In this document: piece by piece, positions 4,016 through 23,000 of the stretch
Position numbering within the stretch: position 1 is the first letter of the stretch
Layout of the letters: each line of letters begins with the position of its first letter
Source of the DNA: a virus
Lineage: Duplodnaviria > Caudoviricetes
Virus record (IMG/VR): IMGVR_UViG_3300030372_001589
Span: 6,524-70,523 of that record
Reading direction: 5' to 3' (one strand)
DNA: 64,000 nucleotides
Notes under the pieces: generated by a model
Database searches by the model: none
Seen by the model: only the letters and a program-made list of their open reading frames with translations
What the model was told of the DNA's origin: nothing
Translations under genes and position numbers: made by a program

Positions 4016-4315
4016 ATGAGTTATTCATGCAGGTCAAGCGGAGTTTTAGGTGCTAGTAAAGTAATCGTGACAGGGAGAACAAAATTAGTTAGCATTCATG
4101 CGGCTCTTTTTGTTACCGGCGGTGATGCAGTGACAATTAATGTATATGATGGTACGGATAATTCGGGTACTAAAATAGCCATGATTTCTCATTCAACCAA
4201 CGGTTATTACAACCTAGAATATGACATGCACGGAGTTTTGTGCAATACAGGTCTATATCTAGAGGTGGCAGAAGCCGGTTCATCCACCGTTAATGTTTCT
4301 ATCGAATTTAATTGA
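4016..4315 (+). CDS. Small beta-rich putative virion protein
   Basis: 99 aa, GAGGTG SD; alternating beta-strand pattern. Confidence 0.6.
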   Translation: MSYSCRSSGVLGASKVIVTGRTKLVSIHAALFVTGGDAVTINVYDGTDNSGTKIAMISHSTNGYYNLEYDMHGVLCNTGLYLEVAEAGSSTVNVSIEFN

Positions 4316-4324
4316 GGTGATTAT

Positions 4325-4714
4325 ATGGCGGCACTAAATCAAGATACAAGGTTAATTATGACTATTTTATTTGTTGGTACTGTTAGCGGTGCTAATGTAT
4401 ATTTTTATGCTAATTACGGAGTATCGTTCCCTTATACTACTTTATCCCATGCTGTATTATTTGGATTAATTACAGTCGGAGGAATTATGTGTTTAAAGGC
4501 TATCTTTGATTTATCATTAAATGATAAAATTGAGATAAGACTTTTAGATAGGCGCATTAATGCTTATTGGGAAAGAAGGGCTAGGGATGAGCAACAAAGA
4601 CAAAAACTCACAGAAACTATGAAACAGTATAATACTGTTACAATCGCACCAAGCACCCCAATGTATGAGTCAGAAAATACAATATCAAATGATTTCTTGG
4701 CTAAATTACAATGA
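4325..4714 (+). CDS. Membrane protein with two predicted TM helices and a charged coiled-coil tail (holin-like topology)
   Basis: Hydrophobic LIMTILFVGTVSGANVYFYA and AVLFGLITVGGIMCLKAIF, then RRARDEQQRQKL. Confidence 0.7.
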   Translation: MAALNQDTRLIMTILFVGTVSGANVYFYANYGVSFPYTTLSHAVLFGLITVGGIMCLKAIFDLSLNDKIEIRLLDRRINAYWERRARDEQQRQKLTETMKQYNTVTIAPSTPMYESENTISNDFLAKLQ

Positions 4715-4723
4715 GGTGTTTAG

Positions 4724-4942
4724 GTGGTTTTTGACTCCATAATGGGTTTTACTGAAACTGATTATGTCTATAATCAAAGTCGGGCGCATTCAGCCGACAT
4801 GTTTTTTACTAAAATGAGATATATTTTTTGGGGATTCTGTTCCTCATTATCTTGTTTTTTTATAGGGAACATATTAGGTGTGTTTGATATTAACATTATG
4901 GGTTGGATTATGGATAATTTGTGGCATTCATGGGAGATATAA
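4724..4942 (+). CDS. Small membrane protein
   Basis: 72 aa, GTG start after GAGGTG; hydrophobic YIFWGFCSSLSCFFIGNILGVF. Confidence 0.65.
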   Translation: MVFDSIMGFTETDYVYNQSRAHSADMFFTKMRYIFWGFCSSLSCFFIGNILGVFDINIMGWIMDNLWHSWEI

Positions 4943-4943
4943 T

Positions 4944-5606
4944 ATGTCAATGATTGCTGGTTTTGCGGTTGTAGTGACCGAAGCCTGTATATCTTTTTGG
5001 AAAAAAGTTCACGCTATTAATTTTGGAGTATATGGGGCGACAATGGTAGGAAAAACAACATTAAGTCACCAATTAAGAACAAGGGGAGAAGTACCGCAAA
5101 TTAATGAAAGAACGGTTGGATTACATAGACCTACAAGAAAAAGCATTAAATTACATGGTGATATGCACACTATTAGAAGTTCAGATATAGGGGGAGAAGC
5201 GATATATTGGAAAGAATGGGTTAAAGACATGAAATCTCGTAAACCTAAATATGTGATATTTATGATAGACCATAGACATTTAGATAGTGCGGCCAATTTA
5301 GACCATCAAGTAGCGTGGAAATTTTTAGTCGATATAATTACTAGTGATAGATGGCCTAATGGAAAAAGAAAAAAAGAAAAAGATTATCCTTTAGCAATAT
5401 CAATATGGGCTAATAAATATGATATTTGGGGAGAAAAACACAAATCTGAAAATCCAATAGATAAGCACCCAATCTTTGAACCTTTCAAATATGGTATGAG
5501 AAAATTAAATGATAAGGGAATACCTACTTTCAAATATATTGTATCTGCAAAATCTCAACCCGAAATGGTGTATAAAGGAATCACTACGATGATAAAAGAT
5601 TATTGA
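4944..5606 (+). CDS. Small Ras-superfamily GTPase, Arf/Sar1-like
   Basis: G1 GATMVGKT, G2 RTVG, G3 DIGGE, G4 ANKYD and G5 SAK all present with correct spacing; hydrophobic N-terminal helix; ATG 4944 (GGGAG SD) preferred over 4878. Confidence 0.9.
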   Translation: MSMIAGFAVVVTEACISFWKKVHAINFGVYGATMVGKTTLSHQLRTRGEVPQINERTVGLHRPTRKSIKLHGDMHTIRSSDIGGEAIYWKEWVKDMKSRKPKYVIFMIDHRHLDSAANLDHQVAWKFLVDIITSDRWPNGKRKKEKDYPLAISIWANKYDIWGEKHKSENPIDKHPIFEPFKYGMRKLNDKGIPTFKYIVSAKSQPEMVYKGITTMIKDY

Positions 5607-5615
5607 GGAATAAAT

Positions 5616-6296
5616 ATGGCATACCAACAACCAAACTTAATTGGAACTAATGCTCCAATAACAACAAATCCAACAAACCCAAATCAATTGAATACATATT
5701 CTTGGAATAAATTTTTACCTAAAACACAACAGTTTAGGGCGGCTGGAAATATAATAGAATATACATATGATAGTATTAAGCCTAAAAAGAAACTAAAAGA
5801 AATTAAAAAGGTATTATTGCCGGAGAAGAAATCATTCTTAAAACTAAAATACGGGCATAAATTTAATTTTAAAGACATTTGTGTAGTTTGTGGAACACAT
5901 CATGTATGGGAATCGGGAGATTTTTTACGGCCACCAATCCCATTAGATAAAGTTACTAAAGGCCGACCATTAAGAGGCACTTACTGTCCTAAACATGCAG
6001 GTATTCATAAGCAAATGGAAATGTTACAGCAACAGATTTTAGCCGAAGAAAATGGTTTAGATTTCAAAGCATTCATTCCTAAAATGCGAACCCCTCAACT
6101 TATGAAAAGAGGGCCACTTACTACACTATCAAAAGAAGAAGTCGCTAGTCTTGCTTCAACCGGATGGGTTATAAAGCCACCCGTTGTGACAGATAATGAA
6201 ACGGCTATGGCTGAAATAGTTAGATTAGTAGCCGAAATAGGATTATCAACAGAAAGATTGAATTATTTACTAGGTAATGAAAAGAAGGAGGAATAA
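5616..6296 (+). CDS. Zn-finger protein (CxxC...CxxH) with C-terminal helix
   Basis: CVVCGTHH and YCPKHA; GAGG SD. Confidence 0.7.
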   Translation: MAYQQPNLIGTNAPITTNPTNPNQLNTYSWNKFLPKTQQFRAAGNIIEYTYDSIKPKKKLKEIKKVLLPEKKSFLKLKYGHKFNFKDICVVCGTHHVWESGDFLRPPIPLDKVTKGRPLRGTYCPKHAGIHKQMEMLQQQILAEENGLDFKAFIPKMRTPQLMKRGPLTTLSKEEVASLASTGWVIKPPVVTDNETAMAEIVRLVAEIGLSTERLNYLLGNEKKEE

Positions 6297-6298
6297 TT

Positions 6299-6952
6299 AT
6301 GGGTTTATTTGGAACAAGTAACGGGGCAGTAATGGGTGCGGTAAATGCACAGACAGACCAGCAATTCAAAAATGTTAGCAATTTACTTTCATTACAAGAA
6401 AATCATGTCGAAGAGTTTTTTCAGTATCACGGACAGCAATTTTTTTCAGCATTAGAACAATTAATGGAAGATGTAGTAGCAAGGTCAGTTAGTCAGATGT
6501 TAACACAATTAGTATTTGTTCAAGATTCAACAACAGGGACTATGAAACTACAATCTGGTTCTTTGGCAGAATTTGAAAGAATTACAAAAGAAAACATTGA
6601 TTTGGATTTAACAAGACTACTAGATTCAGCAATCAACACTGAAATAATTAATCAAAGAAAAATGGCAAAACAACAATACCTAGAATCTCAAGGCTTCTCC
6701 ACACCAACAGGACAGGTTACTGCTGGTGCGGCTATTGCTGGTGTTACAGGTAATATGCAACAATACAATCAAATGAATGGTGCTATGAATAACGGTTCGG
6801 GCTATCCTGTTCCTCCAAATGGAACAGACGGATATGGCCGACCATATTGGATTGATGCACAGGGCCAAATGTCATATGAACCGCCACAAGCAGGTTTAGG
6901 ATTAGGTTCAGCAATACAAAAAGGTGCGGCTTGGGCTAAATGGTTAATGTGA
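6299..6952 (+). CDS. Helical protein with Gln/Gly/Pro-rich C-terminal region and amphipathic termini
   Basis: 217 aa, GGAGG SD; ends LGSAIQKGAAWAKWLM. Confidence 0.7.
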   Translation: MGLFGTSNGAVMGAVNAQTDQQFKNVSNLLSLQENHVEEFFQYHGQQFFSALEQLMEDVVARSVSQMLTQLVFVQDSTTGTMKLQSGSLAEFERITKENIDLDLTRLLDSAINTEIINQRKMAKQQYLESQGFSTPTGQVTAGAAIAGVTGNMQQYNQMNGAMNNGSGYPVPPNGTDGYGRPYWIDAQGQMSYEPPQAGLGLGSAIQKGAAWAKWLM

Positions 6953-6963
6953 GTTGATTCACA

Positions 6964-8775
6964 ATGGATATTATTTACAGTGGTGCAGGTGGTAGGTCTG
7001 TTGATTGGACTACCAAATACGCCACAAGCGAAATGAAGAAATTCATTTTTGGCAGTAAATATTTAGAAACTAGAAAAAAAGATTATAATAATATTGATGA
7101 TTATATCGAAGGTGTTCCTAAAATAAACGATACTTTAGATAAGGAAGAGTTTGACGGAATTAATAAGTCTGCAATTGACAAAATTAAAAGCACTAAGATT
7201 AAAGAAATGAATGTTGATTTTAAAGATGTTTATTTTTTAGATTTAATAGGAAATTATACCATAGAAATTTTAAACACTGATAGGGTGTTAGATGAAATTA
7301 CAGGTGAAACAAGCCGTGTTGATTTTGATAAAATAAGAATGGGTTGGCAAGGTAAATCAGATGATTATTATAACAATTTGTGGAAAAGCGGGAAAATATC
7401 TGAAAAAACACAAAAAAATAAAGAGATAAAAACTATTATTCTAAAAGAATCTGATTTAAATTCAGTTATTCCAAATGTAGGCAAACCTAAAACTAAAATA
7501 GAAAAACTTAATAGTTTAGGTTTTGAGTATATTTATGGTGATAAAATTAATACAACAATAAATTTAAAAGATAAACCTTTAGGAAAAGAAGGAAAAACAA
7601 GAAGTTCTAGAGGAAAAAGGTTCGGACTAAAAGGAAAGAAAGTTATTTCTGAAGATTTAATGCAATCTTATGATAAGTTTTACAATAAAGTAAAGTTAGA
7701 TAAAGAAGGTAATGCAAAAGAAGTCTTTGATACTCCTTATGTTTTCACAAGAAGTTTATATTTTGCAGAAGAGATGAAAGAGTCTTTAGAAAATAAAGTA
7801 TCTAATACTAAAGAATTAATTAATGACACTAAAGAGTTAATTAGCGATTTAAAATCTGTTTCTTCAGAAGAAGATAAAGAACGCCAGCAAAAAAAATTAG
7901 AGGACTCAACTAAATTATTTAAAAGTTTAAACGAATCGTTAGAAAGAGCAAAAAAATATTTGGTAATGACAGCAGGTTTAAGAAAGGAAATAGAAACCCA
8001 AATGAAAACTTTCAATGAAACTGATGATTTGTTAGATTCAGTTAGAGATAAAATAAACAATGCTGAACAGTTAACAGATAAGGAATTAGATTCAATTAGC
8101 AACATAGGTGAATTAAAAAGAATGAGAGGTAAACAAAAAGTAAAGATTAACTTCAAAGAAGAATACCTCAAATTTACTGATAAAGAGGCTATGCCTGATG
8201 ATGATTATTTGTTAGAACTCTTTGATGAATTAACCGATACTTACGATAATATGTTTAGAAAAAGAATAGTTGAGTGGTTGGAAAAATATGAACAATTAGG
8301 TATTAAACTCAATAAAGAATTTGAAAAAAAATTAGGTATAGGAGAACTACCTAAAACAAGACTAACTTCTAAAGAGGAACGAGAAGCGTTTAATAATCCT
8401 AAATTATTTATTAAAAACGAAAAAGATGTTATTCGGGCTTTGAATGATTTAAAAGTATTATACGAAATAAGACTACAAGTTTCAAAAATTACAAAGAAAA
8501 AGAAAGATAAAGAGGTAATTACCTACGCAGTTAACGAATTTAAGTTAATTTTAAAAGAAGAATTAATTCCTCCTATTGTTCCTAAAGGAACAGGTGGTGG
8601 TTCTCAACAAGCCCCATTCAGACAAAGAGGCGCAACAAAAAGAGCAGGGCCGCAAAAGGCGAGCGAAAGGCGTTTAGCAATAGGCGGTAAAGAACCTTAT
8701 CAAGTTAAAGGTGATATTACTTTATTTGCCAAAAGAATTAATAAAAAATTAAAAGAATTGGAGTTAGTGATATAA
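6964..8775 (+). CDS. Large Lys/Glu-rich hypothetical protein with coiled-coil segments
   Basis: 603-aa uninterrupted ORF; TAATG overlap with the next gene; no family recognised. Confidence 0.75.
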   Translation: MDIIYSGAGGRSVDWTTKYATSEMKKFIFGSKYLETRKKDYNNIDDYIEGVPKINDTLDKEEFDGINKSAIDKIKSTKIKEMNVDFKDVYFLDLIGNYTIEILNTDRVLDEITGETSRVDFDKIRMGWQGKSDDYYNNLWKSGKISEKTQKNKEIKTIILKESDLNSVIPNVGKPKTKIEKLNSLGFEYIYGDKINTTINLKDKPLGKEGKTRSSRGKRFGLKGKKVISEDLMQSYDKFYNKVKLDKEGNAKEVFDTPYVFTRSLYFAEEMKESLENKVSNTKELINDTKELISDLKSVSSEEDKERQQKKLEDSTKLFKSLNESLERAKKYLVMTAGLRKEIETQMKTFNETDDLLDSVRDKINNAEQLTDKELDSISNIGELKRMRGKQKVKINFKEEYLKFTDKEAMPDDDYLLELFDELTDTYDNMFRKRIVEWLEKYEQLGIKLNKEFEKKLGIGELPKTRLTSKEEREAFNNPKLFIKNEKDVIRALNDLKVLYEIRLQVSKITKKKKDKEVITYAVNEFKLILKEELIPPIVPKGTGGGSQQAPFRQRGATKRAGPQKASERRLAIGGKEPYQVKGDITLFAKRINKKLKELELVI

Positions 8776-9893
8776 TGCCGATAGCATCCTCCCCAAGCGA
8801 TTATACTGCAATTAATGTTGATTACTCAGCAGGTAATGGATTTTACACAGACAAGGGAGCAGTTTCAGATATGCTTCAAGTCCCAGCATTTTCTTCTTCC
8901 ACATTCCCTTCACAAGCACAAGTCGGTTCTATTATTAAAAACATAGAAGGTATTGTTGATGATAAAGTAAAGAGGTCATACAGACCGATTATCTATGAAA
9001 ACGAATTTCATAACTTTGAGTTTATTCGTCATCCTATGCAATCTTATTATGGTGGCTATGTTGGATTTATTCAGTTAGATACTTTGAAGGTTAAGAAGAT
9101 TATTTCTCTAAAGGTGTGGCAAGGAAACCAATATCAAGAGTTGGCATCTGCTTCTGCATCTATTACATTAGACAGTAGTGGATATAATAACCTAAGAAGC
9201 ATTACATTACAATTACCTAATAGTGGTGATTCGTGGGTATTGTATCATCATGCAGAAGGTTCTTTAGCGGCGCATAATACATTTCATAACGGCTTCGGTT
9301 CTAAAACAACTGCACAGGACATTTGCCATTTAATTAATGAAGAATTTCCTGCTAGCACTGCACAATTTACAGGTGCAACAAGAGATAAGATATTAACTTC
9401 ATCTCCTAATAACCTAAACATAAGTGATTTCTTTTATGCGAGTCCAGACCCCGATGATAGCAATAAAATAAACATTTCTAGCCTTTTAGCCGGAGAAGAT
9501 GGCTCCAATTGCACCATTACAGTCGCAGATAAAGCGGGTCAAACATCAGATACTACCACATCAGCGTTCACGGATATGCAAGATATGAAGCGTCTTGGTT
9601 CCTTTTGGTCTATTGGTGATGAAGGCCGAATATTTTTCCTTAGAGATTATCCATACCATACTCAAAATTCTATTATTGTAACTTATATTGCTGGCAGTAG
9701 CCGTGTTCCTTCTGCTATTCATAAAGCAACGACAATGTTAGTAGCGGCTGAGATATTAAGACATGACGACCAAACCATAATGATTGCTGAAACAGGTGGT
9801 AACATTGGTGCTAAAGAAAAATATGATATTTTAGTCAAAGAAGCATATGCTATATTAAAGGGTAAAGGGGATATAGTATTCCTAATTGATTAG
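8775..9893 (+). CDS. Head-tail adaptor (gp6/gp15-like) with large internal insertion
   Basis: C-terminal IVTYIAGSSRVPSAIHKATTMLVAAE matches the adaptor 'vtYxaG..vP..i..A...lva' pattern; located between head and tail genes. Confidence 0.7.
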   Translation: MPIASSPSDYTAINVDYSAGNGFYTDKGAVSDMLQVPAFSSSTFPSQAQVGSIIKNIEGIVDDKVKRSYRPIIYENEFHNFEFIRHPMQSYYGGYVGFIQLDTLKVKKIISLKVWQGNQYQELASASASITLDSSGYNNLRSITLQLPNSGDSWVLYHHAEGSLAAHNTFHNGFGSKTTAQDICHLINEEFPASTAQFTGATRDKILTSSPNNLNISDFFYASPDPDDSNKINISSLLAGEDGSNCTITVADKAGQTSDTTTSAFTDMQDMKRLGSFWSIGDEGRIFFLRDYPYHTQNSIIVTYIAGSSRVPSAIHKATTMLVAAEILRHDDQTIMIAETGGNIGAKEKYDILVKEAYAILKGKGDIVFLID

Positions 9894-10639: not shown

Positions 10640-12235
10640 ATGGCAGTAGAAAACAGTAGTATATTTTTAGGTAGCGGCGCATCAATGACTTTTGTTCCAG
10701 AAGTGGACTTTTATTTTAAGGCACAAGGAGCGAGTACAACGCAAATTCAAATTGAAACAACCAATGCGGTTCAATTTCAATTAGTGGATAATATGTATGT
10801 AGGTTGTACTATTGATTTTTATAATGCTTCTGATAGTGGAAATTATACTTCTTCTCACACAGTTACTTCTAACGACCACGATACTTTTACTATAACTCCC
10901 GCCATTGGTGAAGCAGTAGCAAGCGGCGATGAATTTGTATTAAAAGGATATGGCGCACCCTGCCCTGCACCCGATTCAGATAATGACGGAACAGGAAGAG
11001 TAAGACTTCATGCCGACAATTGGCTTGGATTAGTTGAAACTGCGGCATTCCCTAACATTGAAGTTGAAATGAAACAATTAAATCTTTCTCTCGGTGGTAC
11101 AAGAAACTTTACTCATCAATACAAAGGTATTGAAACTTCATCTGGCGGTAACTTGGCTTTGATGTGTAATCATGTAACTTGGCTTTATTACGCATTAGGT
11201 TTATGCACTGAATTAAGTGTTGCTAATGCAGTTACTTCTGAACACCCTGCATCTTATCATGTAGGTACTCATGGAGGTATGTATTTTCATGGCACTTCCG
11301 CTACTTCTCATGTTGATGAGGGGCCGTTTATTTATCGAGCAAACAGTGTAAGTGGAACAACTCACTTGGTTCCTCCTTTGTTATTTACTGTTGATGATAC
11401 GGTAGGCGACTTAGATGCTATCCCTACTTCTAATGGAGATATAGTAGCATCCGGTGGACTAATAACATATAAGTTTGCAGAATCTAATACTGCTCATTTA
11501 CCTTCTTTTGCACTTGAATATTCTCTAAGTAAATTAGCAGGTGCGGCATCGGCGCACTATACAACTGATACTGATAGCGATGCAGAAGACTTAAACTTCG
11601 TTAGGGTAGCAAGAGGAAATAGAGTAAATACTCTAACAATGACCGCTAATGAAAATGAAGAATTAAAAATGACTATGGACTTGAATACAAGAGCCGTTTC
11701 AGAAATCCCGCAAGGCACTAATTATGACTCTAGAGGCGGATTAACTTCTGCTCAAAACTCAAGTCTATTTAATTTCACATCAGTAGCAAACCACTTAGAA
11801 CCGTTCTTCTTTTCAGATGGCTCAATAAGCATATTTGGAAATACATTCTTAAAGATTACTAACTTTACACTGACTATTAACAATAACTTACAAGATAAGA
11901 GATTTGTCGGTGTTGGTAATAAGTCCATTAAAGAAGGTATTCCAGCGCAAAGAACATATGAACTTGCTATTACTGCTATGGTTACTGACGACACATTATT
12001 TACTGAATTGTTAAACCAAACAGAAAACACAGGTAGCACTGAGAAAATAGCCTTAACATTTACTAAAGACAACACTGCGGAAGAAACCTTCACTTTAGAA
12101 TTTGAAGATTATTTCCTATCATCTAACACATGGACTGTTCCTGACGATAAAGGGCCAATTACAGTGGAAGCAACATTAATGCCAAGAACACTAGGTACTT
12201 GTACCACTTCAACTCATTGGGTATTGCAGGGGTGA
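10640..12235 (+). CDS. Major tail tube protein (long, with extra domains)
   Basis: C-terminal ITNFTLTINNNLQ...RTYELAITAMVTDD...FTLEFEDY...GPITVEATL is a tail-tube pattern; strong GGAAAGGAG SD; precedes TAC and TMP. Confidence 0.75.
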   Translation: MAVENSSIFLGSGASMTFVPEVDFYFKAQGASTTQIQIETTNAVQFQLVDNMYVGCTIDFYNASDSGNYTSSHTVTSNDHDTFTITPAIGEAVASGDEFVLKGYGAPCPAPDSDNDGTGRVRLHADNWLGLVETAAFPNIEVEMKQLNLSLGGTRNFTHQYKGIETSSGGNLALMCNHVTWLYYALGLCTELSVANAVTSEHPASYHVGTHGGMYFHGTSATSHVDEGPFIYRANSVSGTTHLVPPLLFTVDDTVGDLDAIPTSNGDIVASGGLITYKFAESNTAHLPSFALEYSLSKLAGAASAHYTTDTDSDAEDLNFVRVARGNRVNTLTMTANENEELKMTMDLNTRAVSEIPQGTNYDSRGGLTSAQNSSLFNFTSVANHLEPFFFSDGSISIFGNTFLKITNFTLTINNNLQDKRFVGVGNKSIKEGIPAQRTYELAITAMVTDDTLFTELLNQTENTGSTEKIALTFTKDNTAEETFTLEFEDYFLSSNTWTVPDDKGPITVEATLMPRTLGTCTTSTHWVLQG

Positions 12236-13004: not shown

Positions 13005-15119
13005 ATGGTTGATGGTGCAGATGCAATAGATAATGTATCACAATCAATTTCTTCTTTAACACAAAATCTTTCTGAAAATGCTAAAAGATTTAAATTAAGC
13101 AGTAGTGCTTTAGTTCAATGGGCTGGCGATACAGGCAAAGCAAGCAAACGATGGACTACATTTAGTCGTATAACTGCTGGAACAGGTATTTGGAAATTTC
13201 AAAATTATTTGCGTGGTGCTTTAGAAATTGTTGGTGCTTTTGGTGAAAGAACCGAAGAAGCAATAAAAGCCCAAACCCAACAAGAAAAGGCATTAGCCGA
13301 AACAATCCAAGGTGTTAGAAAAATTAATAAAGAGTATTCGGAATTAAATAAAGTAGTTAAAAATCAAAATAATCTTGATAAAAAAATGTTAGAATTAAAG
13401 AAAGACGAAGAAAAACAAATTAAAAAACTTAGGGGAACCCGAACAAAAGCACAAAATGAAATAAAAAAAGAACAAAAAGCATATCAAAAAATAGTAGAAG
13501 GACAGAAAAAACTCCAAGAGGACATTAGCAAAGTTGAAGAAGGTCGAGATTTTAAAGGTAAATTAAAGGAACTTAAAGGGCTACGAAAATTAGAAAAAGA
13601 AGGAAATGCTTTGTTAGAGGAATCAAAAGGGATTCTAGAAGAAAAACAAAAAACATACGATAGTATGGAAACAGTTAAATCTATTAAAGAAGAATTTGAA
13701 GCACAAAAACAAAATGTTAAGCAATTGGCAGAATTTAGTGATTCACAAATACAGGCTTTAGAATCAACTAGTGCTTTTAATAGAGCCATAATCCAAGGAA
13801 AAACAGATACAGAAGCCTATGCAGAAGCATTTAAACAGGTAACTGAAAATGTTAAACTAAATAGTGACGAATACAAAAAATTTCAAAAAGAACAACAAAA
13901 GGTCGCTGATTTTGAAGAAAAGATGAAAGGAGATTTTAAATCTTTAAGAGATGCGGGAAAAATTTTAAGAAAGGATGAAATAGCATTTGCAGACAAATTT
14001 AGAGGTGAAATAGCCGAAGGTGGATTGAAAAAGAGTATTCCTAAAGCATTCGGCAAAGCAAAAGAAGTGGCTGGAAAAGTCGGAGGTGGAATAAAGACTT
14101 TTTGGAAATTATCAACAAGTAAAAAATTCCACCAAGATTTCCAAAAATCAACTACAACAGGAATAAGATTTAGACAAAAGATATTAAAATTCCAAATGTT
14201 TGTAAAGCCTATAATGAATATGTTTTTCAAATTCTTAATATTTGGTATATTGGGAATGATTGCAGTCTTAGCGATTGCTAAAGTAGCCTATGATATTATG
14301 GGAATTATGGCTGATTTCGGAGTATTTGACGATATGAAAGAAATATTCTTAGCGGCGGTTGGTATATTAGGGGCGGTATTTGGAATAATAGGTTCATTTA
14401 TGGAGGGTGATTTTGCTTCTATGTTTGATTACTTAGGAACAATAATGTCGTCTTTAATGACAATAGGTTGGGAATTATTACAGATATTTGTTAAAGGTGT
14501 ATTTGCAGTTGCAGTGGGGCTGTTTTATTCTTTATTTGATTTAGTAGGATGGCTTCTTTCAGATAGTAATTGGAAAAAAGCAGGTGGCATTCTTCTTAAA
14601 ATAGGGGCGGCATTAATACTAATATACTTTGTGAAATATTTGCTATCTCAAGCACTATTATTAATAGGAATTTATGCCCTACCTATAATGATATTTGTAT
14701 TAATAGCGGCATTCATTACTGCTACTTTAATGGCATTATACAAACATATTGATAGGATTAAAGAACCCTTTGAAAAAAGGTTGAAACAAATTAAAGATGC
14801 TCTAACAGATGACCCCGATAAAGGTTTTTGGGATGAAAATAAACATATTTTAGGTTTGGCTAAAGGTGGTTTGACAACAGGGGCGATGAATCTTGTCGGT
14901 GAAAAAGGGCCAGAATTAGTCAGATTACCAGCAGGTTCAAGAGTTTATTCTAATTCACAAAGCAAGTCTATGAGTGGAGGTTCCACTACTAATAACTTTA
15001 ATATCACTATTAATGCAAAAGATACTTCTGATGCAGAATTAAGAAGAATCGCAGATAAAATAGGAACAATGGTTAATAATAAAATGAATAGAACTACTTC
15101 GTCTAGAACATTGGGGTGA
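13005..15119 (+). CDS. Tape measure protein
   Basis: 704 aa; coiled-coil N-half, hydrophobic helical middle, C-terminal AKGG...LVGEKGPELVRLPAGSRVYSN motif. Confidence 0.9.
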   Translation: MVDGADAIDNVSQSISSLTQNLSENAKRFKLSSSALVQWAGDTGKASKRWTTFSRITAGTGIWKFQNYLRGALEIVGAFGERTEEAIKAQTQQEKALAETIQGVRKINKEYSELNKVVKNQNNLDKKMLELKKDEEKQIKKLRGTRTKAQNEIKKEQKAYQKIVEGQKKLQEDISKVEEGRDFKGKLKELKGLRKLEKEGNALLEESKGILEEKQKTYDSMETVKSIKEEFEAQKQNVKQLAEFSDSQIQALESTSAFNRAIIQGKTDTEAYAEAFKQVTENVKLNSDEYKKFQKEQQKVADFEEKMKGDFKSLRDAGKILRKDEIAFADKFRGEIAEGGLKKSIPKAFGKAKEVAGKVGGGIKTFWKLSTSKKFHQDFQKSTTTGIRFRQKILKFQMFVKPIMNMFFKFLIFGILGMIAVLAIAKVAYDIMGIMADFGVFDDMKEIFLAAVGILGAVFGIIGSFMEGDFASMFDYLGTIMSSLMTIGWELLQIFVKGVFAVAVGLFYSLFDLVGWLLSDSNWKKAGGILLKIGAALILIYFVKYLLSQALLLIGIYALPIMIFVLIAAFITATLMALYKHIDRIKEPFEKRLKQIKDALTDDPDKGFWDENKHILGLAKGGLTTGAMNLVGEKGPELVRLPAGSRVYSNSQSKSMSGGSTTNNFNITINAKDTSDAELRRIADKIGTMVNNKMNRTTSSRTLG

Positions 15120-15769: not shown

Positions 15770-17035
15770 ATGTATGAAGTCTTAACAGGAAAACAACGCT
15801 CTTTGGTTTTTCCAATTATGTGTAATGCCTTTGTTAAGATGGATTATTCAGATAATGTACCTAATACCGGAGATACCGCAACCTACGATGATATAGGCTA
15901 TGGATTTTGGAGTCACAAAGGCTCTTTTTCTTTTGAAGCATTAGTTACTCCTTATGAGGTTAATGGAAATGGCCCTCATCAAGCGGCGGTTGGTTTAGGT
16001 GTAAATGCGTTAGGTGTAGGTAATGAAACTACTAATTTAAGTAAAAAGATAATGTCTGGCCTACCACAGTCAACTTACGCATTAAGTGATGGGGATGCTA
16101 ACGATGAAACGGAAATGCAAAATCACTTATATTTATCAAGAGCAAATAGACAAGCCCATGAGATGATGATTTTTAATAATGATAATTTTAATATATCTTT
16201 ACTAAATGCTACTAATCACACTCAAAACCAACCTGCTCAATATAAAATAAAGGCTGAGGTTAAATTAGGGCCATCTTTATTCACTAAAACAGTTACTTCT
16301 GATGTTGTAATTGTACCAAGTCAAGGCCATGCTTTTAGATATAATGCTACTAATGGTTCTGACTTATTTGATGGATTTAATAAAAACGGGAGAGTAATGT
16401 ATGCTAAAGTGGCTACAACTCATAGTAGTTCAAGTGGTGCTATGGCAGAAGGTGGCAATACCTTCACACTTGCTAGTGCTACTCATCCTATACATGGAAA
16501 TCATCAAGACATTTATGTTCGTAATGGTTTTACATTTACTTCTTTAGGTCAACTCAATAGCGTTAGCGGTGCAGACATACAATTAAACACGGATAGCACA
16601 AGGCCAGCAGTGGCAAGCGGTACAGATATATATTTACCAACTTACAAGCACCCATCGTATATAGACCAAATGTTTCATGTGGGTTGTGTTTTTGATGATA
16701 AGACTAAAAAAATAGGACTATACCTTAATGGGTTACTAATCAAAGAAGATACCCACCAAGTTAGCACTACTATTCCCTTTGAGTTTTCTAAAACAGATAC
16801 TTATATTGGTTCTAATGGATTAAATGACCTTAGTGTTAGTGGCATTACTTGGGCGGGAGATAGTAGCGGAACGGCTACCGGCCCACAATCCGCTAATACA
16901 TGCAAACAATTTATGGGTGAATTTCACGAAATAGCGATTACTAACAAATTAAGCAGGTTTAATGAAATAGATAATTTGATGCCTAATTTTGATAATACAT
17001 TACTGTATCTTAGATTTGAAGAGGTGGATTTATGA
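15770..17035 (+). CDS. Tail protein with LamG/concanavalin-A-like domain
   Basis: FSFEALV...HVGCVFD...IGLYLNG...YIGSNG...FMGEFHEIAI LamG motifs; ATG 15770. Confidence 0.7.
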   Translation: MYEVLTGKQRSLVFPIMCNAFVKMDYSDNVPNTGDTATYDDIGYGFWSHKGSFSFEALVTPYEVNGNGPHQAAVGLGVNALGVGNETTNLSKKIMSGLPQSTYALSDGDANDETEMQNHLYLSRANRQAHEMMIFNNDNFNISLLNATNHTQNQPAQYKIKAEVKLGPSLFTKTVTSDVVIVPSQGHAFRYNATNGSDLFDGFNKNGRVMYAKVATTHSSSSGAMAEGGNTFTLASATHPIHGNHQDIYVRNGFTFTSLGQLNSVSGADIQLNTDSTRPAVASGTDIYLPTYKHPSYIDQMFHVGCVFDDKTKKIGLYLNGLLIKEDTHQVSTTIPFEFSKTDTYIGSNGLNDLSVSGITWAGDSSGTATGPQSANTCKQFMGEFHEIAITNKLSRFNEIDNLMPNFDNTLLYLRFEEVDL

Positions 17036-20000
17036 CCCGTATTTTTGCCGAATCTCTTGAAAATATTGAAGTTAGCACTGTTGCTACAAACGCTTCTTCT
17101 AATCAGATAACTAATATACAAAATGCTACTGCTGGAACAACTAATACTGCTTTTTATGCAGGTATGGGCGTTTCATATAAAACAGGGGCTTCTAGTAGTA
17201 CGATTGCAGATAACTCATACACTACAAGTATTACTCATAGTGGCAGTGGATATGCAGTTATGAATCAAAATGCTGCTTTAACAGATGCAGACCATACGGT
17301 TATTTTTAATAAAAGTAATTACAATGTTCCTACTAACCCCAAATTTAGAACCTTTGGAGCATATTCTAGCAGTGAAAGATTATACACTATTGTTTATGAC
17401 AAGAATCCTTTGTCTTTTACTGATGCTACTTGTGATTTAACTAATAGCGATGCGACAGTTACTTGTGATGCAAGCGCAACAATAAAAGTAGGAATGATAG
17501 TCACTTACGGTTCTTCTGGTATTGCAGATGGCACTTATGTTAAATCTATCAATACAGGTACAGAAGGAAGTAATGTCAGTTCATTTGAATTAAGTGCTAA
17601 TTTTACAGGCACAGGAGCCAATAACCAAACTTTAACTTTTACTTCAGGTGGTCTATTTAAGCAACAATTAGCAACAGGAGATAGTGCAGATACAGAATAT
17701 TCTAATTTAGAAACTACGGAAGGATTTAAAATAATTAGTTTTGATTTTAATTCTAGAGCAGGTGTAAAATTAGATATGAATTTAACTACTCACAATTATT
17801 TTGTTCTAGTTCATTCAGACGATTATCTAAAACATCATTTCGCAAAAATAACTTCAAAAATTACAGAAAATAACTTTCACACAGAAGGAGTTTCTATTGA
17901 AAATACCGTCATAGGATTTGAGTTTGAACCAAAATTAGGTGATGAATTACTAAGAGATTCTAAATTTATGGTATTCAAAGGGCCATCTATTAGCGATACT
18001 GATAGAGATTGTAATATATTAGCAGTATCAGCAGGTATTAAAAAAGACCTTCAAGATAATTTAGTGTGTTCTCAACCTTTGTTTTATTTCTTTAATGATA
18101 AGTTAGATAAAGATAATCAATTAGACCATAATACTAAATGTTTTACTAAATTTTTAGGAGGTAATACTACCACTATTGCTCCAATTATAACAAATACCTT
18201 TGTAACATGTCAAGATAATAGAAAGGTAATTAAAGATTATAGCAAATTTACGCACAATTTAACTATGGTTGATAATTTAAAGAAGTTAGATGCGCCAGAT
18301 TTTGATAACACTGCATTTTCACAGTATAATATATTAAATGAATATGATGGAGGAACTGTTACTACTTGGAATAGAGCATTAAATTTTACAAACTACGATA
18401 AATGTTTTACTAATGCTAGAAGAGATACAGACAATGATATTTTTAACCCCGACTCTCAATCATTTAGAGGGCCGATAAGATACATTCATTATGATTTTTC
18501 TCCTAACAGAACTAATAAAACTTATAATGTAATTGACTTAACAATGGAAGATTCTGTCGGTAATAGAGGAAGTTTTATTGAAACTAAAATAGTGGATAGT
18601 AAAAGAATAATGCCTACTAAAATATTTACTAATGATAAAATAAGAATTAGACATAGACTTCATAAAGGAAAGTTTAATGATTGGTTTGCACTAAAAGCAA
18701 AAATAAAATCTTCTTTAGGTTCAAATGAATATAGATTTACTACTGAATATGATTTAAGCACTATGTTCAATGTAGGAGATGAAGTTAAAATAGGAACAGA
18801 CGCAAGTTCACCTATTCTAATTATTGAAACAATAGATGCAATTAATAATTTTGGTACTACCGGAAAAGAACAAGACATCACCTTTAGAGCAGAAAGCCGA
18901 ATAGAAAACGGAAGTATATTTGCTAGTACAGGATATACTTTATCAGAAGGTGCTGTTATTTACAGAAGGGCTTGGAATACCACAGATAAGACCTTGTTAA
19001 CTACATTTGATATATTAGAAAATAGAAATAATAATTTATATGTTAAATTAATATCAAACCATTTTGGTTTCTTAGAAGCAACTGTTACTGCGTCTGATAA
19101 AAACAAACAGATGTTAACTTTAGATTTTACTACCACCAATAGGTCAATTTCTTCTTTAGATTACATGTATGGTTCTTATTACATAGAAGTTGAAAAATTC
19201 ACAGGGTCGATTGAAAAAACTTCTTATTATAAACAAGATGGACAAACTATTTTACAATTGGCTGGGAGGTCTGATTCTAGAAAATTATTAGGCCCAATTA
19301 TTAATAAAAATTTATTACATTCAGAAGATATTGTTTATTCTAGTTCAAGTCCTTATAATAGATTAGGTTATGTCGATGCTTATTCTCAAACAGATAGAGT
19401 AGTGGTTTGTTCTTTTGATAGTAAACATGTTGTGTTTAGCGGAACACACCGTTTATCAGTTGGCGATAATATTTATCTTTTACATGATTCTCATAATACT
19501 ATATCATATATTGGAGAAGTTGACGGATTAGGAGGCGTTGATGGTGACGGAGATTTTGACGGAAGTAACCCTACTACTGAAGTATATTTAGTGGATTATT
19601 CATTAGCAGAAAGCAGCACAAACCCTTCTGATGAAGATATAGGTTTATTTGCTAGAACTAAACATTATATTTTTAATAAAGCATTATCATCAAATAGAGT
19701 TTTAAACACTTCTACTGATTTAACAGGAACCGCAACTAAAGGATTATATTTTACCGGCGGGAAAAAAATATCGTCTAATGGTGCAGAGAGTACAAACTTG
19801 ATAGGTACAGGTGTAGGTACTGATTCAAGAGGGCTTGGTTATCATATCAGTGATTGTATTTCTATGTCAAATGATTCTAAATTTCAAATAAGATTAGATG
19901 ATGACGCTAGCGGAACAACAACTGAAACAGATAAAACCTATGAAACTTTTGATACCATAAATACTTTGATAGATTTTAATATATTGACTAATACTTACGA

Positions 20001-23000
20001 TGAAGATACAAATACTAGCATTATAGAAATAGCACCTCATTTACCTTTAACTTTAGGAAGAGTTGATATTAACTATGCTAATACTACCGATACTACTTTT
20101 AACGCTACTACATTAGGAGTGGGAACGGGAACTATCGGAAATAGATATTTTACTTTACCCGACACTGCAACTAACGCATTATCGTCAATAGCAAGCCCTA
20201 GAAAATATCATAATGAACCTATTTATGCTGATGGAGTTTTTATTGGTATTTTACTAAAGGTTGATAATAATTTTCCATTTACTTCAGTTACCGTGTATCT
20301 TGATAGGCCATTGAGTATTACTCTTAGCGGTCAAACTATACAAACCATTACACCAACAGGTAATTTCGGTGAAACAAGTAAACTAACTCACGAATTAAAT
20401 CTATTAAATGGCGCACATCTTCATGGAGGTAAAATGATAGGATTACTTAGTCCATATACTAGAACCGGCTCTGTCCCCGCAGGTTCGGGAGTAAGTTTAT
20501 TTATGAATTATCCTCTGTATTATAATTCTATGACTACTGCTAATTCTGTGGAAGCCAAGACTTATTCTGAAAAATATGGTGCGCCTATGTATAGAATATA
20601 TAATTTAGAAAAAGGAAATTATAATACAATAGTTAATGAAGCAGGTTCAACTTATAATAACATAGGTGACGGGGATGGGAATAACTATTATTACGCTGAA
20701 ACTTTAAGCAAGATACCTTACTATGCTTCTGCATATAGATTTAATTTTGGGCATTCTTTAGATGTTACATCAAGTTATACTAATCCTACATTTAAAAACC
20801 ATGTAACCGGAGTAGGTAAAACAGATAAAGGAGTCAATAAACACCTTTTGCCAGAATCTAGAGGATTAACTAATGTTGCTGGCTCAAGGTATTTTGATAC
20901 AAGAATACACGCTAAAAATGCTTCTGAAAGAACAGTGGCCTTTAATTACGGCCATAATTGGTTTCAACTATTTGAACATTCTCAAGCCAATGGTACTAGT
21001 CCATATGTGGCTAAAGACCACATGAACCACATAGACCCCAAAGTAACAAGAATGTTTTTATTCGCTAATTGTGATTTGCACCCTTATTCTTCTAAAAGAG
21101 CAGATAGTTTAATGCAAGGTAGTCAGACTAGAACAATAAGTGATTATGGTCTATTTGCTTTGAATAAACCTGCTTCTTCTAGTAATTCTGATACTAAATC
21201 TATGTCAATAGGAAGTTCTTCTAGTGTTAACTTACTTGATTCTAGTTACTCTTTTTCAAATATAATTTCATCAGATAAAACTATCAATACCCTAAAGAGA
21301 TTTTCAATGATGAGATTAACAGAAGTTGTCATTGATTGGGCTTTTAATCAATTTGACCCCGAAAACATAGTTAGTAAAAAGAGAACAATTCCTCCATTTT
21401 TATATGCGTCTTATGATTGGTTTTCACTACAAAGTTTTTGGTCGGGTAATGAGGTTCAAACTGCTGATTATAATAACACTAATAAGACAATAACTGCGGA
21501 TAGTGATATTAGCGGTTCATTGGCGGCAAATGACATCTTAGTGGATTCAGCAGGGAGATTTATAGGAGTAGTTGCTAGTGTCAGCACCACTACAATAACT
21601 TTAGACGATTACCCCAAAAAAACAGATGGTACTAATTATTATTCTGGTATTTTGTATAAGATAGAGGCTTTAACTAAAGATGGTACTAATCATACTTATA
21701 ATGCCGCTAACATAGAAGGTCACGGAGGAAGAGATACTTTTACTCAATTTACAGACAGTATTCACATGCTACAATCAATAGTAATACATGATACTCCTGA
21801 TTACGGCTCAAGCGGTTCTGCTTGGCATGATGCTTTTAGTAGTGATTTAGATGAAAGCACGGGTGACCCTGCAAGGTCAGCAAATACTTATTTACCAATT
21901 TCAATAGAACAATACGCCACTGATTTAGCGGGTGGAGTTGAAATATCAGATTTAGCCAATTCAGCCCATACTGCCAAAGCATACCACCCTTCGCAAGTAT
22001 TGAAAATATTTGATAGTTTAGATGGTATAGGTAATGTAACTACTCCTTCTGGAGTTGATACTTTAATGGGTGGCTTTTTGCCTTTATTTTTAGATAGATT
22101 TTCTGTTGAAAATGATGGGGGTTCTAGAGTTACAAAGGGAACAGTAGGTGGGCCTGTTAAATGTTGGAGCGTAAAAGATTCAAGACATGATACTGCTGAC
22201 CCCGATACATCAGATATAAGCATAATTGGATTAGGGCTATATACTGATTTTGCATTATATGATAATGCTAGCGGAAGTTCAAGAACCTATGATAAAGACG
22301 CAGATGGCGTAATGATGGGATTCAAACCAAGACTATACATTGATACTATTTCAGGAGTGAGTACAAATAAAGCCGCAGGTAATCAAACAATATACACATA
22401 CATAATTGACCCCGATGGTTCAGATATTACTAATGTTGAAACGAGAGATTACTCAGAAAGCGATGATACAGGCACATTTACAGGAGTAAATAAAAAATCA
22501 TTACACCATATGAATGATTTAACAGGTACTTATTTAGTTTCAGAAATAGGAAAATATTATAATAGTAGTGATGTGAAAACCACTAGTAATGAAACATTTG
22601 CTAATCCAATTTCGTTAAATAACTACTATCCTAAAGACATCTGCTATGTAATATCTCATGAAATTGATACTACTAATACTAGTAAAAGACATATTATTAG
22701 AACAGATAAGGCATTAGCGGTGGGGTGGTATAGAATAATGCAACCGAATCACACATGTTTTTATGATTTTAGCCCACAAGAAATAAGAATAAACGAACTT
22801 TCTTCTTCTTATACTAAAGTATCGGGAGAAAATAAATGCTATACAGACATAACAGACTACTTAATTAGTAATAAAGCAGGGCCAAGAGGACAGGTAGGAA
22901 ATTATAATAATACAGGAGGCCAAGAAGCGGCATTGTCTATGTATGTTGTTATTGATGTTGACGGGCAATCTGGAGAAAATTATGTAGTGCTAAGAGAACC

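Follow-up and report, generated by a model that had tools for sequence, protein, structure and literature searches.

A putative Arf-like small GTPase in a conserved membrane-protein cassette of magroviruses and other marine tailed viruses

A 64,000-nucleotide stretch of the IMG/VR virus record IMGVR_UViG_3300030372_001589 (positions 6,524 to 70,523 of the record; hereafter the window, whose own numbering is used throughout) encodes a 220-residue protein, P0001, with the motifs of a small GTPase. The window derives from a magrovirus, i.e. a virus of the Poseidoniales (marine group II archaea); the 70.5-kb record is estimated to be 76% complete, and gp088 of Poseidoniales virus YSH_150918 is a 76%-identical homologue of P0001. 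The gene is a core gene of magroviruses and the first of a homologous trio, completed by genes for a Cys/His protein (P0206) and a Gln/Asn/Gly-rich protein (P0207), that is shared by at least three divergent marine tailed-virus groups. In the window the trio is preceded by genes for two small predicted membrane proteins, and the five genes together are referred to as the cassette (Table 1). An initial annotation, made from the sequence alone, had described the GTPase as Arf/Sar1-like and had overlooked the conserved multi-gene membrane cassette around it.

The five G motifs of P0001 lie in canonical order and spacing and, in agreement with the initial annotation, all are intact. None of the G-motif residues varies among 32 aligned relatives with 69–86% identity (A1), and G1, G3 and G4 are also invariant across the 23 divergent rows of a second alignment (A2). 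At 160 viral loci, 80 from each of the two main groups described below, GKTT was found 159 times, ANKxD 150 times and a tryptophan 11 positions after the G3 aspartate (Trp at +11) 154 times; the stretch W..W..YVIFMID (W89, W92 and Y103–D109) is likewise present in P0001. The median pairwise ratio of nonsynonymous to synonymous substitution rates (dN/dS) is 0.07, with dS at ~1.4 and thus near saturation. Together, the invariant motifs and the low dN/dS imply a real gene under strong purifying selection, well beyond chance. An in-frame GTG upstream, at 4878, would give an open reading frame (ORF) of 242 residues; the relatives begin at the ATG (MS[VLMI]..GFA), one base past the stop codon of the preceding gene. 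Word-indexed searching of 5.8 billion proteins yielded 376 relatives; identity is 69–86% for the best 120, and several relatives bear the automatic Joint Genome Institute (JGI) name “GTPase SAR1 family protein”. On this evidence we predict with high confidence that P0001 is a real guanine-specific small GTPase of the Ras-like superfamily; confidence in the cassette described below is equally high. A major tail protein or a tail chaperone, candidates that gene position would suggest, is ruled out by the G motifs and the fold.

At the position of the catalytic glutamine in switch II, P0001 carries a glutamate. This replacement, reported in the initial annotation, holds for all 80 group-1 loci and does not extend to group 2, where most loci have glutamine (52/80). 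It may be speculated that the glutamate makes hydrolysis in group 1 slow or dependent on a partner.

The extent of the cassette was defined on loci from IMG/VR, comprising 450 loci of the window type (group 1) and 266 loci in which the GTPase is ~30% identical (group 2; contigs of up to 110 kb). Iterated hidden Markov models (HMMs) built from the window proteins were run on 80 loci of each group. The GTPase HMM matched at 80/80 loci in both, the Cys/His protein HMM at 75/80 in group 1 and 80/80 in group 2, and the Gln/Asn/Gly-rich protein HMM at 69/80 and 80/80, respectively, always after the Cys/His gene; we attribute the missing group-1 partners to loci cut at contig ends. HMMs for the capsid, protease, neck and tube proteins matched in group 1 only (0/80 in group 2). 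A third group is represented by L166, a 59-kb contig in which the GTPase (E = 7e-66), the Cys/His protein (E = 9e-19) and the Gln/Asn-rich protein (E = 3e-10) were all found. Linkage of the GTPase to its two soluble partners, and to membrane proteins, is obligatory.

In all three groups, a membrane protein of ~130–185 residues with a charged tail and a protein of ~70–80 residues with a single predicted transmembrane (TM) segment are encoded ahead of the trio. The group-1 representatives in the window, of 129 residues (with a charged, probably coiled-coil tail) and 72 residues, are each present at 77/80 group-1 loci. Proteins with the architecture and place of the former occur in group 2 (L040:9198-9755) and in L166 (8570-8986), and positional analogues of the latter, with 70–81 residues, occur in both. 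In groups 2 and 3 a small two-TM protein also follows the trio. Between the single-TM gene and the GTPase gene, L166 additionally encodes a very acidic 252-residue protein with ~24 consecutive aspartates (L166:9241-9999). The cassette lies between the head and tail genes in group 1; in group 2 it follows a gene for a 2200-residue protein and precedes the gene for the large terminase subunit (TerL) by a few genes, ahead of the run from a helix-turn-helix (HTH) gene to TerL. Giant proteins of 2200–2375 residues are encoded in both groups (further copies at L040:2497-9108 and L012:2136-9107), in group 2 just upstream of the cassette.

The conserved cysteines and histidine of P0206 probably form a metal site, as judged from the pattern C-x2-C ... 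RGTYCP[KE]H, which is shared by groups 1 and 2; the Cys/His residues are lost in L166. P0206 had no match in Pfam, PHROG, NCBIfam or PADLOC, and its predicted structure (mean predicted local distance difference test score, pLDDT, of 63) had a best match of Z = 4.0 in the PDB, while the ESM Atlas returned nothing above 0.84, so that its fold was not assigned. Family matches to P0207 were absent in the library scans, and none of the cassette proteins had a meaningful match in PADLOC or NCBIfam. Prediction of a complex between the GTPase (residues 20–220) and the Cys/His protein, each supplied as an alignment, scored 0.00 and 0.01 against a mark of 0.32, which is evidence neither for nor against an interaction.

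Table 1. Coordinates of the cassette genes, the motifs of P0001 and the surrounding structural genes in the window
Feature	Position	Strand	Remarks
129-residue membrane protein, cassette gene 1	4325..4714	+	Hydrophobic N-terminal half, one or two predicted TM segments (Kyte-Doolittle)
72-residue protein	4724..4942	+	One predicted TM segment, Trp-rich tail; stop one base before GTPase start
Putative Arf-like small GTPase P0001, 220 residues	4944..5606	+	Stop-free translation, G motifs, alignment, fold
N-terminal hydrophobic helix, residues 3–19	4950..5000	+	Invariant Glu13, then Lys-Lys, ~7 residues to β1
G1/P-loop GATMVGKT, residues 31–38	5034..5057	+	G31, G36, K37 and T38 invariant
G2/switch I RTVG, residues 56–59 (Thr57)	5109..5120	+	R56, T57 and G59 invariant in A1
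G3/switch II DIGGEAIYWKEW, residues 81–92	5184..5219	+	DxGG; Glu85 at catalytic Gln position; Trp92 at +11
G4 ANKYD, residues 156–160, predicted guanine specificity	5409..5423	+	N157, K158 and D160 invariant, 23/23 rows of A2
G5 SAK, residues 201–203	5544..5552	+	Invariant in A1; ATK or ATR in group 2
Cys/His protein P0206, 226 residues	5616..6296	+	C89-x2-C92 ... RGTYC124-P-K-H127; directly downstream of GTPase
Gln/Asn/Gly-rich protein P0207, 217 residues	6299..6952	+	Helical centre, hydrophobic-amphipathic C-terminus
Prohead protease	348-1595	Same as GTPase	Upstream
Major capsid protein, HK97-type	1605-2939	Same as GTPase	Upstream; followed by small neck-type ORFs
Tail tube protein	10640-12235	Same as GTPase	Downstream
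Tape measure protein	13005-15119	Same as GTPase	Downstream
Giant 2375-residue protein	17032-24159		After tape measure and distal tail genes

The G domain of P0001 is preceded by a hydrophobic helix, which spans residues 3–22 in the AlphaFold model. Its best 18-residue window (residues 2–19) has a mean Eisenberg hydrophobicity <H> of 0.63 and a hydrophobic moment of 0.20; of the “hydrophobic/amphipathic” helix of the initial annotation, the hydrophobic character is thus retained and the amphipathic one is not. All distant relatives likewise begin with a hydrophobic stretch, which in some is clearly transmembrane-like. The uniform hydrophobicity points to a constitutive anchor, similar to that of the signal recognition particle receptor subunit β (SRβ), rather than to a switchable amphipathic helix, and suggests that the N-terminal helix is a permanent anchor that either spans the membrane or is deeply inserted in it.

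The fold and the profile comparisons both place P0001 near the Arf family. An alignment of 32 rows was the basis of the AlphaFold model (mean pLDDT 67.8; below 50 at residues 34–38 and 45–61), which has a small G-domain fold, with more than 300 PDB chains at Z ≥ 8 and top rows made up entirely of small GTPases and Ras-like domains of Gα proteins. Foldseek matched G-α, Rab33 and Arl proteins. In a search of 48,161 chains independent of Foldseek, the top ten (Z 14.2–15.7) featured LokiRagO (an Asgard Rag-like protein), Arl2, Gi-α, Arf6, Gs, SRβ, Sar1 and Arl13B, with translation factors at Z ≤ 13.8, Rab, Rho and Rheb at ~13 and EngA at 12.3. When Foldseek's best 1000 PDB chains were reranked by VIA-align, the top 41 rows were all from the Arf family (Z 14.5–16.1), so that the structure prediction proposed in the initial annotation bears out its assignment at the level of fold. 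These rows include Arl6 (Z 16.1; root-mean-square deviation, rmsd, 2.6 Å over 162 residues), Arf6 (15.9), Arf1 (15.7), the Asgard protein GerdArfR1 (14.8; PDB 8OUM), Sar1 (14.7) and also Arl1, Arl2, Arl3 and Arl8; over these best matches the rmsd is 2.6–3.1 Å for ~160 residues at 13–20% sequence identity.

In profile–profile alignment with hhalign, the family profile aligned with Arf-like proteins at a probability of 98.7% (E = 4e-16, score 104, 168 columns) and with Der-type GTPases at 97.3% (E = 2e-11, score 85). A profile of the distant relatives reached the bona fide Arf/Arl-type proteins P0252 and P0253 at E ~3e-5, which served as Arf-like references in this comparison, and the columns for GKTT, DxGG, Trp at +11 and NKxD align with those of the Arf-like P0252, P0253 and P0258 (wDvGG...lW). 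The motif details on which the initial annotation had relied (T-V-G in switch I, ANKxD, DxGG followed by tryptophan and, after β4, IFMxD) accordingly hold against Arf-like sequences, and the place of the N-terminal helix directly before β1 is a further likeness, as are GKTT and T-[IV]-G. In the ESM Atlas the clusters nearest after the viral ones carry Pfam Arf. Four distant relatives (P0157, P0182, P0193 and P0226) pass the Pfam Arf model with 27–36 bits, the first three of them having it as their best-scoring model; this model is unspecific, matching other GTPases in 12/14 control genomes searched in six frames. MMR_HSR1 is matched by 17/23 family members, the most of any Pfam family, and SRPRB by 13/23, near or below the cut-off, with a best E of 5.9e-6 and no match to P0001. 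Against PDB sequences the family profile reached Ras at E ~0.09.

Several results weigh against the Arf assignment. P0001 did not match Pfam Arf (PF00025) at E ≤ 1, its sole Pfam match being MMR_HSR1 (E = 0.027, 15 bits). The gap in Z to other small GTPases is only 2–3 units, and the middling confidence of the model weakens the fine ranking of folds. A GTP-released amphipathic N-terminal helix is a defining Arf feature (bioRxiv 10.1101/2024.02.28.582541), and the helix of P0001, although at the corresponding place, has by its hydrophobicity and moment more the character of an anchor. The phylogeny proposed in the initial annotation was built with a reduced set: in a maximum-likelihood tree of 46 rows the viral proteins form one clade (SH-aLRT, the Shimodaira–Hasegawa-like approximate likelihood ratio test, 95), and this clade lies outside that of the eukaryotic plus Asgard Arf proteins (SH-aLRT 99); the tree holds no rows for Ras, Rab, Rho, Rag, SRβ, G-α, MglA or ArvA, and the nearest family is not readable from it. 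Because reference sequences were limited, the Arf assignment rests on the fold ranking, a single comparator (Der) and the motifs. We consider it probable, from sequence and model, that P0001 has an Arf-like affinity. Given the failure to match Pfam Arf and the position of the clade outside Arf, “Arf-like” is a fair description and membership of the Arf family is not justified, so that the Arf/Sar1-like assignment of the initial annotation stands for fold, profiles and motifs and not for family membership.

P0001 also differs from Arf proteins in detail. Its helix is uniformly hydrophobic and lacks a Gly2 that could be myristoylated; ahead of β5 there is a basic insert of 25 residues, WPNGKRKKEKDYP, and after β4 a conserved DHRH motif; glutamate replaces the catalytic glutamine; and G5 is SAK, as in Ras, Rab and Arl proteins and unlike Arf (Arf1). 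Moreover, its gene is viral, and the partners encoded alongside it bear no relation to the known ArfGAPs and ArfGEFs.

The viral GTPases are a clade of their own; nearly all members are encoded on viral contigs, and no cellular donor was detected. Searching the A1 profile against 1.84 billion representative proteins gave only 79 proteins at E ≤ 1e-3, the one named cellular match being a tandem “ADP-ribosylation factor-like protein” from a Promethearchaeota MAG (metagenome-assembled genome; E = 5.5e-4). A protein search with the mixed alignment A2 listed magrovirus members only, and all full-length relatives whose contigs were examined lie among unannotated or phage-type genes. Among 185,579 species genomes there was one match to the GTPase, on a misbinned 12-kb contig of a “Maricaulis” MAG; 400 Pseudomonadota genomes gave no full-length match, and a phage record collection, which may not cover close records, gave no match at DNA or protein level. 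The magrovirus papers searched mention no GTPase, and none describes the cassette.

Some of the cellular and distant matches deserve description in their own right. The “Maricaulis sp.” MAG has at least three contigs (C77, C57 and C111) with magrovirus-type GTPase genes (E = 2e-88, 3e-80 and 6e-66), which are almost certainly viral contigs misbinned into a bacterial MAG; the locus L004 is a colinear magrovirus head module. A Promethearchaeota MAG encodes P0197 (L183:8001-9611), a 536-residue protein with tandem Arf-like G domains, each followed by a coiled-coil stretch; both domains have DxGGQ with Trp at +11, and domain 1 has SAK and DVGGQELYRKEW, which is near the viral DIGGEAIYWKEW. On Anaerolineae chromosomes (L181:4941-6387 and L182:1-1304) a 232-residue GTPase that matches Pfam Arf with 33.9 bits is a distant relative. 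It is directly followed by a 212-residue protein of no known family, which none of the cassette HMMs matched; the two genes make up a cellular module among housekeeping genes (transketolase, ABC transporters and tRNA methyltransferase). The JGI name of one distant relative is “signal recognition particle receptor subunit beta”. Another, P0138 (264 residues, with a Cys-rich insert before an HPIF motif), is encoded on an 11-kb contig upstream of genes for proteins of 230 and 174 residues, with Tad2-like and Acb5 anti-defence genes and a phage integrase gene on the opposite strand. This context suggests that temperate viruses infecting other hosts carry the GTPase module too.

The surroundings of the cassette are those of the structural gene block of an archaeal tailed virus, with protease and capsid genes upstream and tube and tape measure genes downstream, as the initial annotation had supposed. 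The opposite arm of the window encodes PolB, an ATP-dependent ligase, a thermosome-type chaperonin, a ribonucleotide reductase and a UvrD helicase, and the gene content of the arm agrees with the published description of magroviruses (PMC5434244). The intergenic gaps around the GTPase gene are 1–11 bases. A “late/structural operon” is therefore a reasonable inference, with late timing deduced from position only. No expression data were found, the datasets covering positions 4300–7000 of the window being marine DNA metagenomes from three studies; a promoter and terminator scan, which does not cover archaeal promoters, gave the counts expected from shuffled sequence. For 31 related viruses, whose loci were picked by GTPase similarity, the median identity is 78.6% for the GTPase, 85.9% for the capsid protein and 74.2% for the protease. 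Directly after the cassette, at 6964–8775, lies a gene for a Lys/Glu-rich, probably coiled-coil protein of 603 residues without a family match; it is poorly conserved, with an HMM match at only 12/80 group-1 loci, although some of the 80 end before the gene. P0209 (372 residues, 8775–9893) matches phrog_17057, a family of no assigned function (E = 5e-14), and has a median identity (79%) close to that of the GTPase. Its gene lies downstream of the cassette and upstream of the tail tube gene, and the product may belong to the neck or tail.

Among characterized systems, ArvA (HVO_3014) of Haloferax volcanii is, by analogy, the closest functional counterpart of the viral GTPase. Of the Pfam profiles, Arf comes closest to ArvA, a small GTPase with an N-terminal helix proposed to bind membranes; ArvA is required for the formation of extracellular vesicles and drives membrane vesiculation in Euryarchaeota, and its gene accompanies those for ArvB (DUF2073) and a Zn-ribbon protein, ArvC (DUF2072), the latter a proposed GTPase-activating protein (Mills 2024, PMC10927574). 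The statement in the initial annotation that Arf-type GTPases are known from eukaryotes and Asgard archaea is consequently outdated, given ArvA in Euryarchaeota (PMC10927574) and the distant relatives in Anaerolineae. The viral system resembles that of ArvA in its euryarchaeal setting, its annotation by MMR_HSR1 only, the N-terminal helix and a partner gene for a putative metal-binding protein. It differs in that the cassette adds small membrane proteins and a Gln/Asn-rich protein; the comparison is one of gene content and annotation. Neither DUF2072 nor DUF2073 was detected in the downstream proteins of the three virus groups (P0206 at E ≤ 0.1; P0207, P0210, P0211 and two L166 proteins at E ≤ 1).

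Other systems share single features with the viral one. SRβ is an Arf-related GTPase with an N-terminal hydrophobic anchor directly before the G domain, and its fold matches that of P0001 at Z 14.6–15.0; unlike the viral protein, the SRβ G3 motif has neither the second glycine nor Trp at +11, and P0001 has no SRPRB match, no SRα/SRX-like partner and a viral context. Like phage lysis cassettes (holin, antiholin, endolysin and spanin), the viral cassette is compact, lies among predicted late genes, encodes small membrane proteins whose tails are charged and is movable relative to the structural genes; the λ lysis genes are upstream of the packaging genes, and the group-2 cassette is placed alike. 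In contrast to such cassettes, it showed no detectable envelope-degrading enzyme, no similarity to holin families and no PHROG match, and we know of no lysis system that contains a GTPase. The Rab of Acanthamoeba polyphaga mimivirus (PDB 5XC5; Z 13.6) is likewise a virus-encoded small GTPase of the Ras superfamily; it was acquired from the eukaryotic host, whereas the magrovirus protein is Arf-like, has no identifiable donor and is encoded in a dedicated cassette.

Taken as a whole, the observations are best explained by a membrane cassette organized around an Arf-like GTPase that would act as a GTP switch, most likely in egress, a reading to which we give slightly less than an even chance. 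The hydrophobic N-terminal helix would tether the G domain to the cytoplasmic face of the host membrane, and GTP binding and hydrolysis would control, late in infection, whether the co-encoded proteins are recruited or active; the GTPase would serve as trigger or timer, and its small membrane partners would be holin-like. That the purpose is to remodel or breach the host membrane for virion release is a tentative proposal, appreciably short of even. It follows from the behaviour of the cassette as an autonomous module, its composition largely of small membrane proteins with charged tails, the ability of Arf/Sar-type and ArvA GTPases to deform membranes, and the fact that the egress genes of archaeal tailed viruses are not known, their egress machinery being “still completely uncharacterized” (PMC10791045). 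In its fullest form, that of a virus-specific, GTP-driven membrane machine, made up of a permanently anchored Arf-like GTPase, a Cys/His regulator, the Gln/Asn-rich protein and the small membrane proteins, which opens or deforms the archaeal cytoplasmic membrane for release in at least three virus groups, the proposal is on the doubtful side.

The egress reading has points against it. The searches revealed no lytic enzyme, muralytic or S-layer-degrading, among the cassette products; the term “holin-like” is generic; the membrane proteins encoded ahead of the trio are not homologous between groups 1 and 2 as judged by hhalign (probability < 2%); group 1 has glutamate in place of the catalytic glutamine; and in both groups the cassette adjoins genes for head morphogenesis or packaging, which an assembly role fits equally well. 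In an assembly role, which we rate as unlikely, the GTPase would be a membrane-associated morphogenesis factor that defines an assembly site on the inner face of the membrane, or a chaperone for neck/tail joining or packaging, and would have no part in release; phage T4, the prohead of which starts on the membrane, provides a model. Such a factor would be at home in the middle of the head-to-tail block, where the group-1 cassette lies, or a few genes upstream of the large terminase gene, as in group 2; the GTPase is conserved to a degree similar to the capsid protein and the protease, which is typical of core morphogenesis genes, and the 1–11-base gaps suggest co-expression with the structural genes. 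However, the order of the trio is constant while the structural genes around it have diverged past recognition and its place relative to them shifts, which an autonomous module fits better than a part fitted to a particular capsid or tail. Moreover, no morphogenesis family of Pfam or PHROG matches any of the five cassette proteins, and the absence, to our knowledge, of any tailed-virus assembly pathway that uses a small GTPase also counts against it.

Mimicry of ArvA-type vesiculation in a takeover of the host, in which the cassette, instead of causing lysis, would promote or inhibit the formation of vesicles, the proliferation of membranes, cell division or superinfection, appears quite improbable. 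The viral GTPase gene is followed by one for a Cys/His protein, much as ArvA is encoded with a Zn-ribbon protein, and P0001 is picked up only by MMR_HSR1, as published for the annotation of ArvA; yet neither DUF2072 nor DUF2073 is detectable in the cassette partners, L166 has lost the Cys/His residues, the 79 proteins reached by the A1 profile include no large archaeal family such as ArvA (1,666 homologues), and the phylum of the host is not listed for ArvA in the main text of its description (PMC10927574). The MMR_HSR1 match, to a “50S ribosome-binding GTPase” family that 17/23 relatives share, might also be taken to indicate a housekeeping-type, ribosome-associated GTPase (Era-, Der- or EngB-like) or a mere passenger, with an incidental hydrophobic N-terminus. 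The significant hhalign probability for Der and the response of the Pfam Arf model to other GTPases in most control genomes point the same way. We nevertheless regard this explanation as very improbable: Arf-family chains rank first and EngA and the translation factors lower, the hhalign score is higher for Arf-like proteins than for Der (104 versus 85), DxGG with Trp at +11 and ANKxD are conserved, every distant relative has the hydrophobic N-terminus, and the gene, which is always among genes for membrane proteins, is a core gene rather than a sporadic passenger.

The present results identify, from sequence, a virus-specific Arf-like GTPase in a new genetic context, whose function we infer only. 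In the surface ocean, magroviruses rank among the most abundant viruses (PMC5434244), and the portable cassette with its predicted anchored GTPase provides concrete, testable candidate genes for the egress of archaeal tailed viruses. If the egress reading is true, the cassette would be the first identified egress system of these viruses and would represent, in viruses of prokaryotes, an equivalent of Arf/Sar1-type membrane remodelling with an origin outside the Asgard–eukaryote line; if the role is instead in assembly, a GTPase-dependent step in tailed-virus morphogenesis would, as far as we know, also be new. The large virus-specific clade would extend Arf-like switches beyond eukaryotes, Asgard archaea and ArvA, and bears on how GTPase-driven membrane remodelling has evolved and spread.

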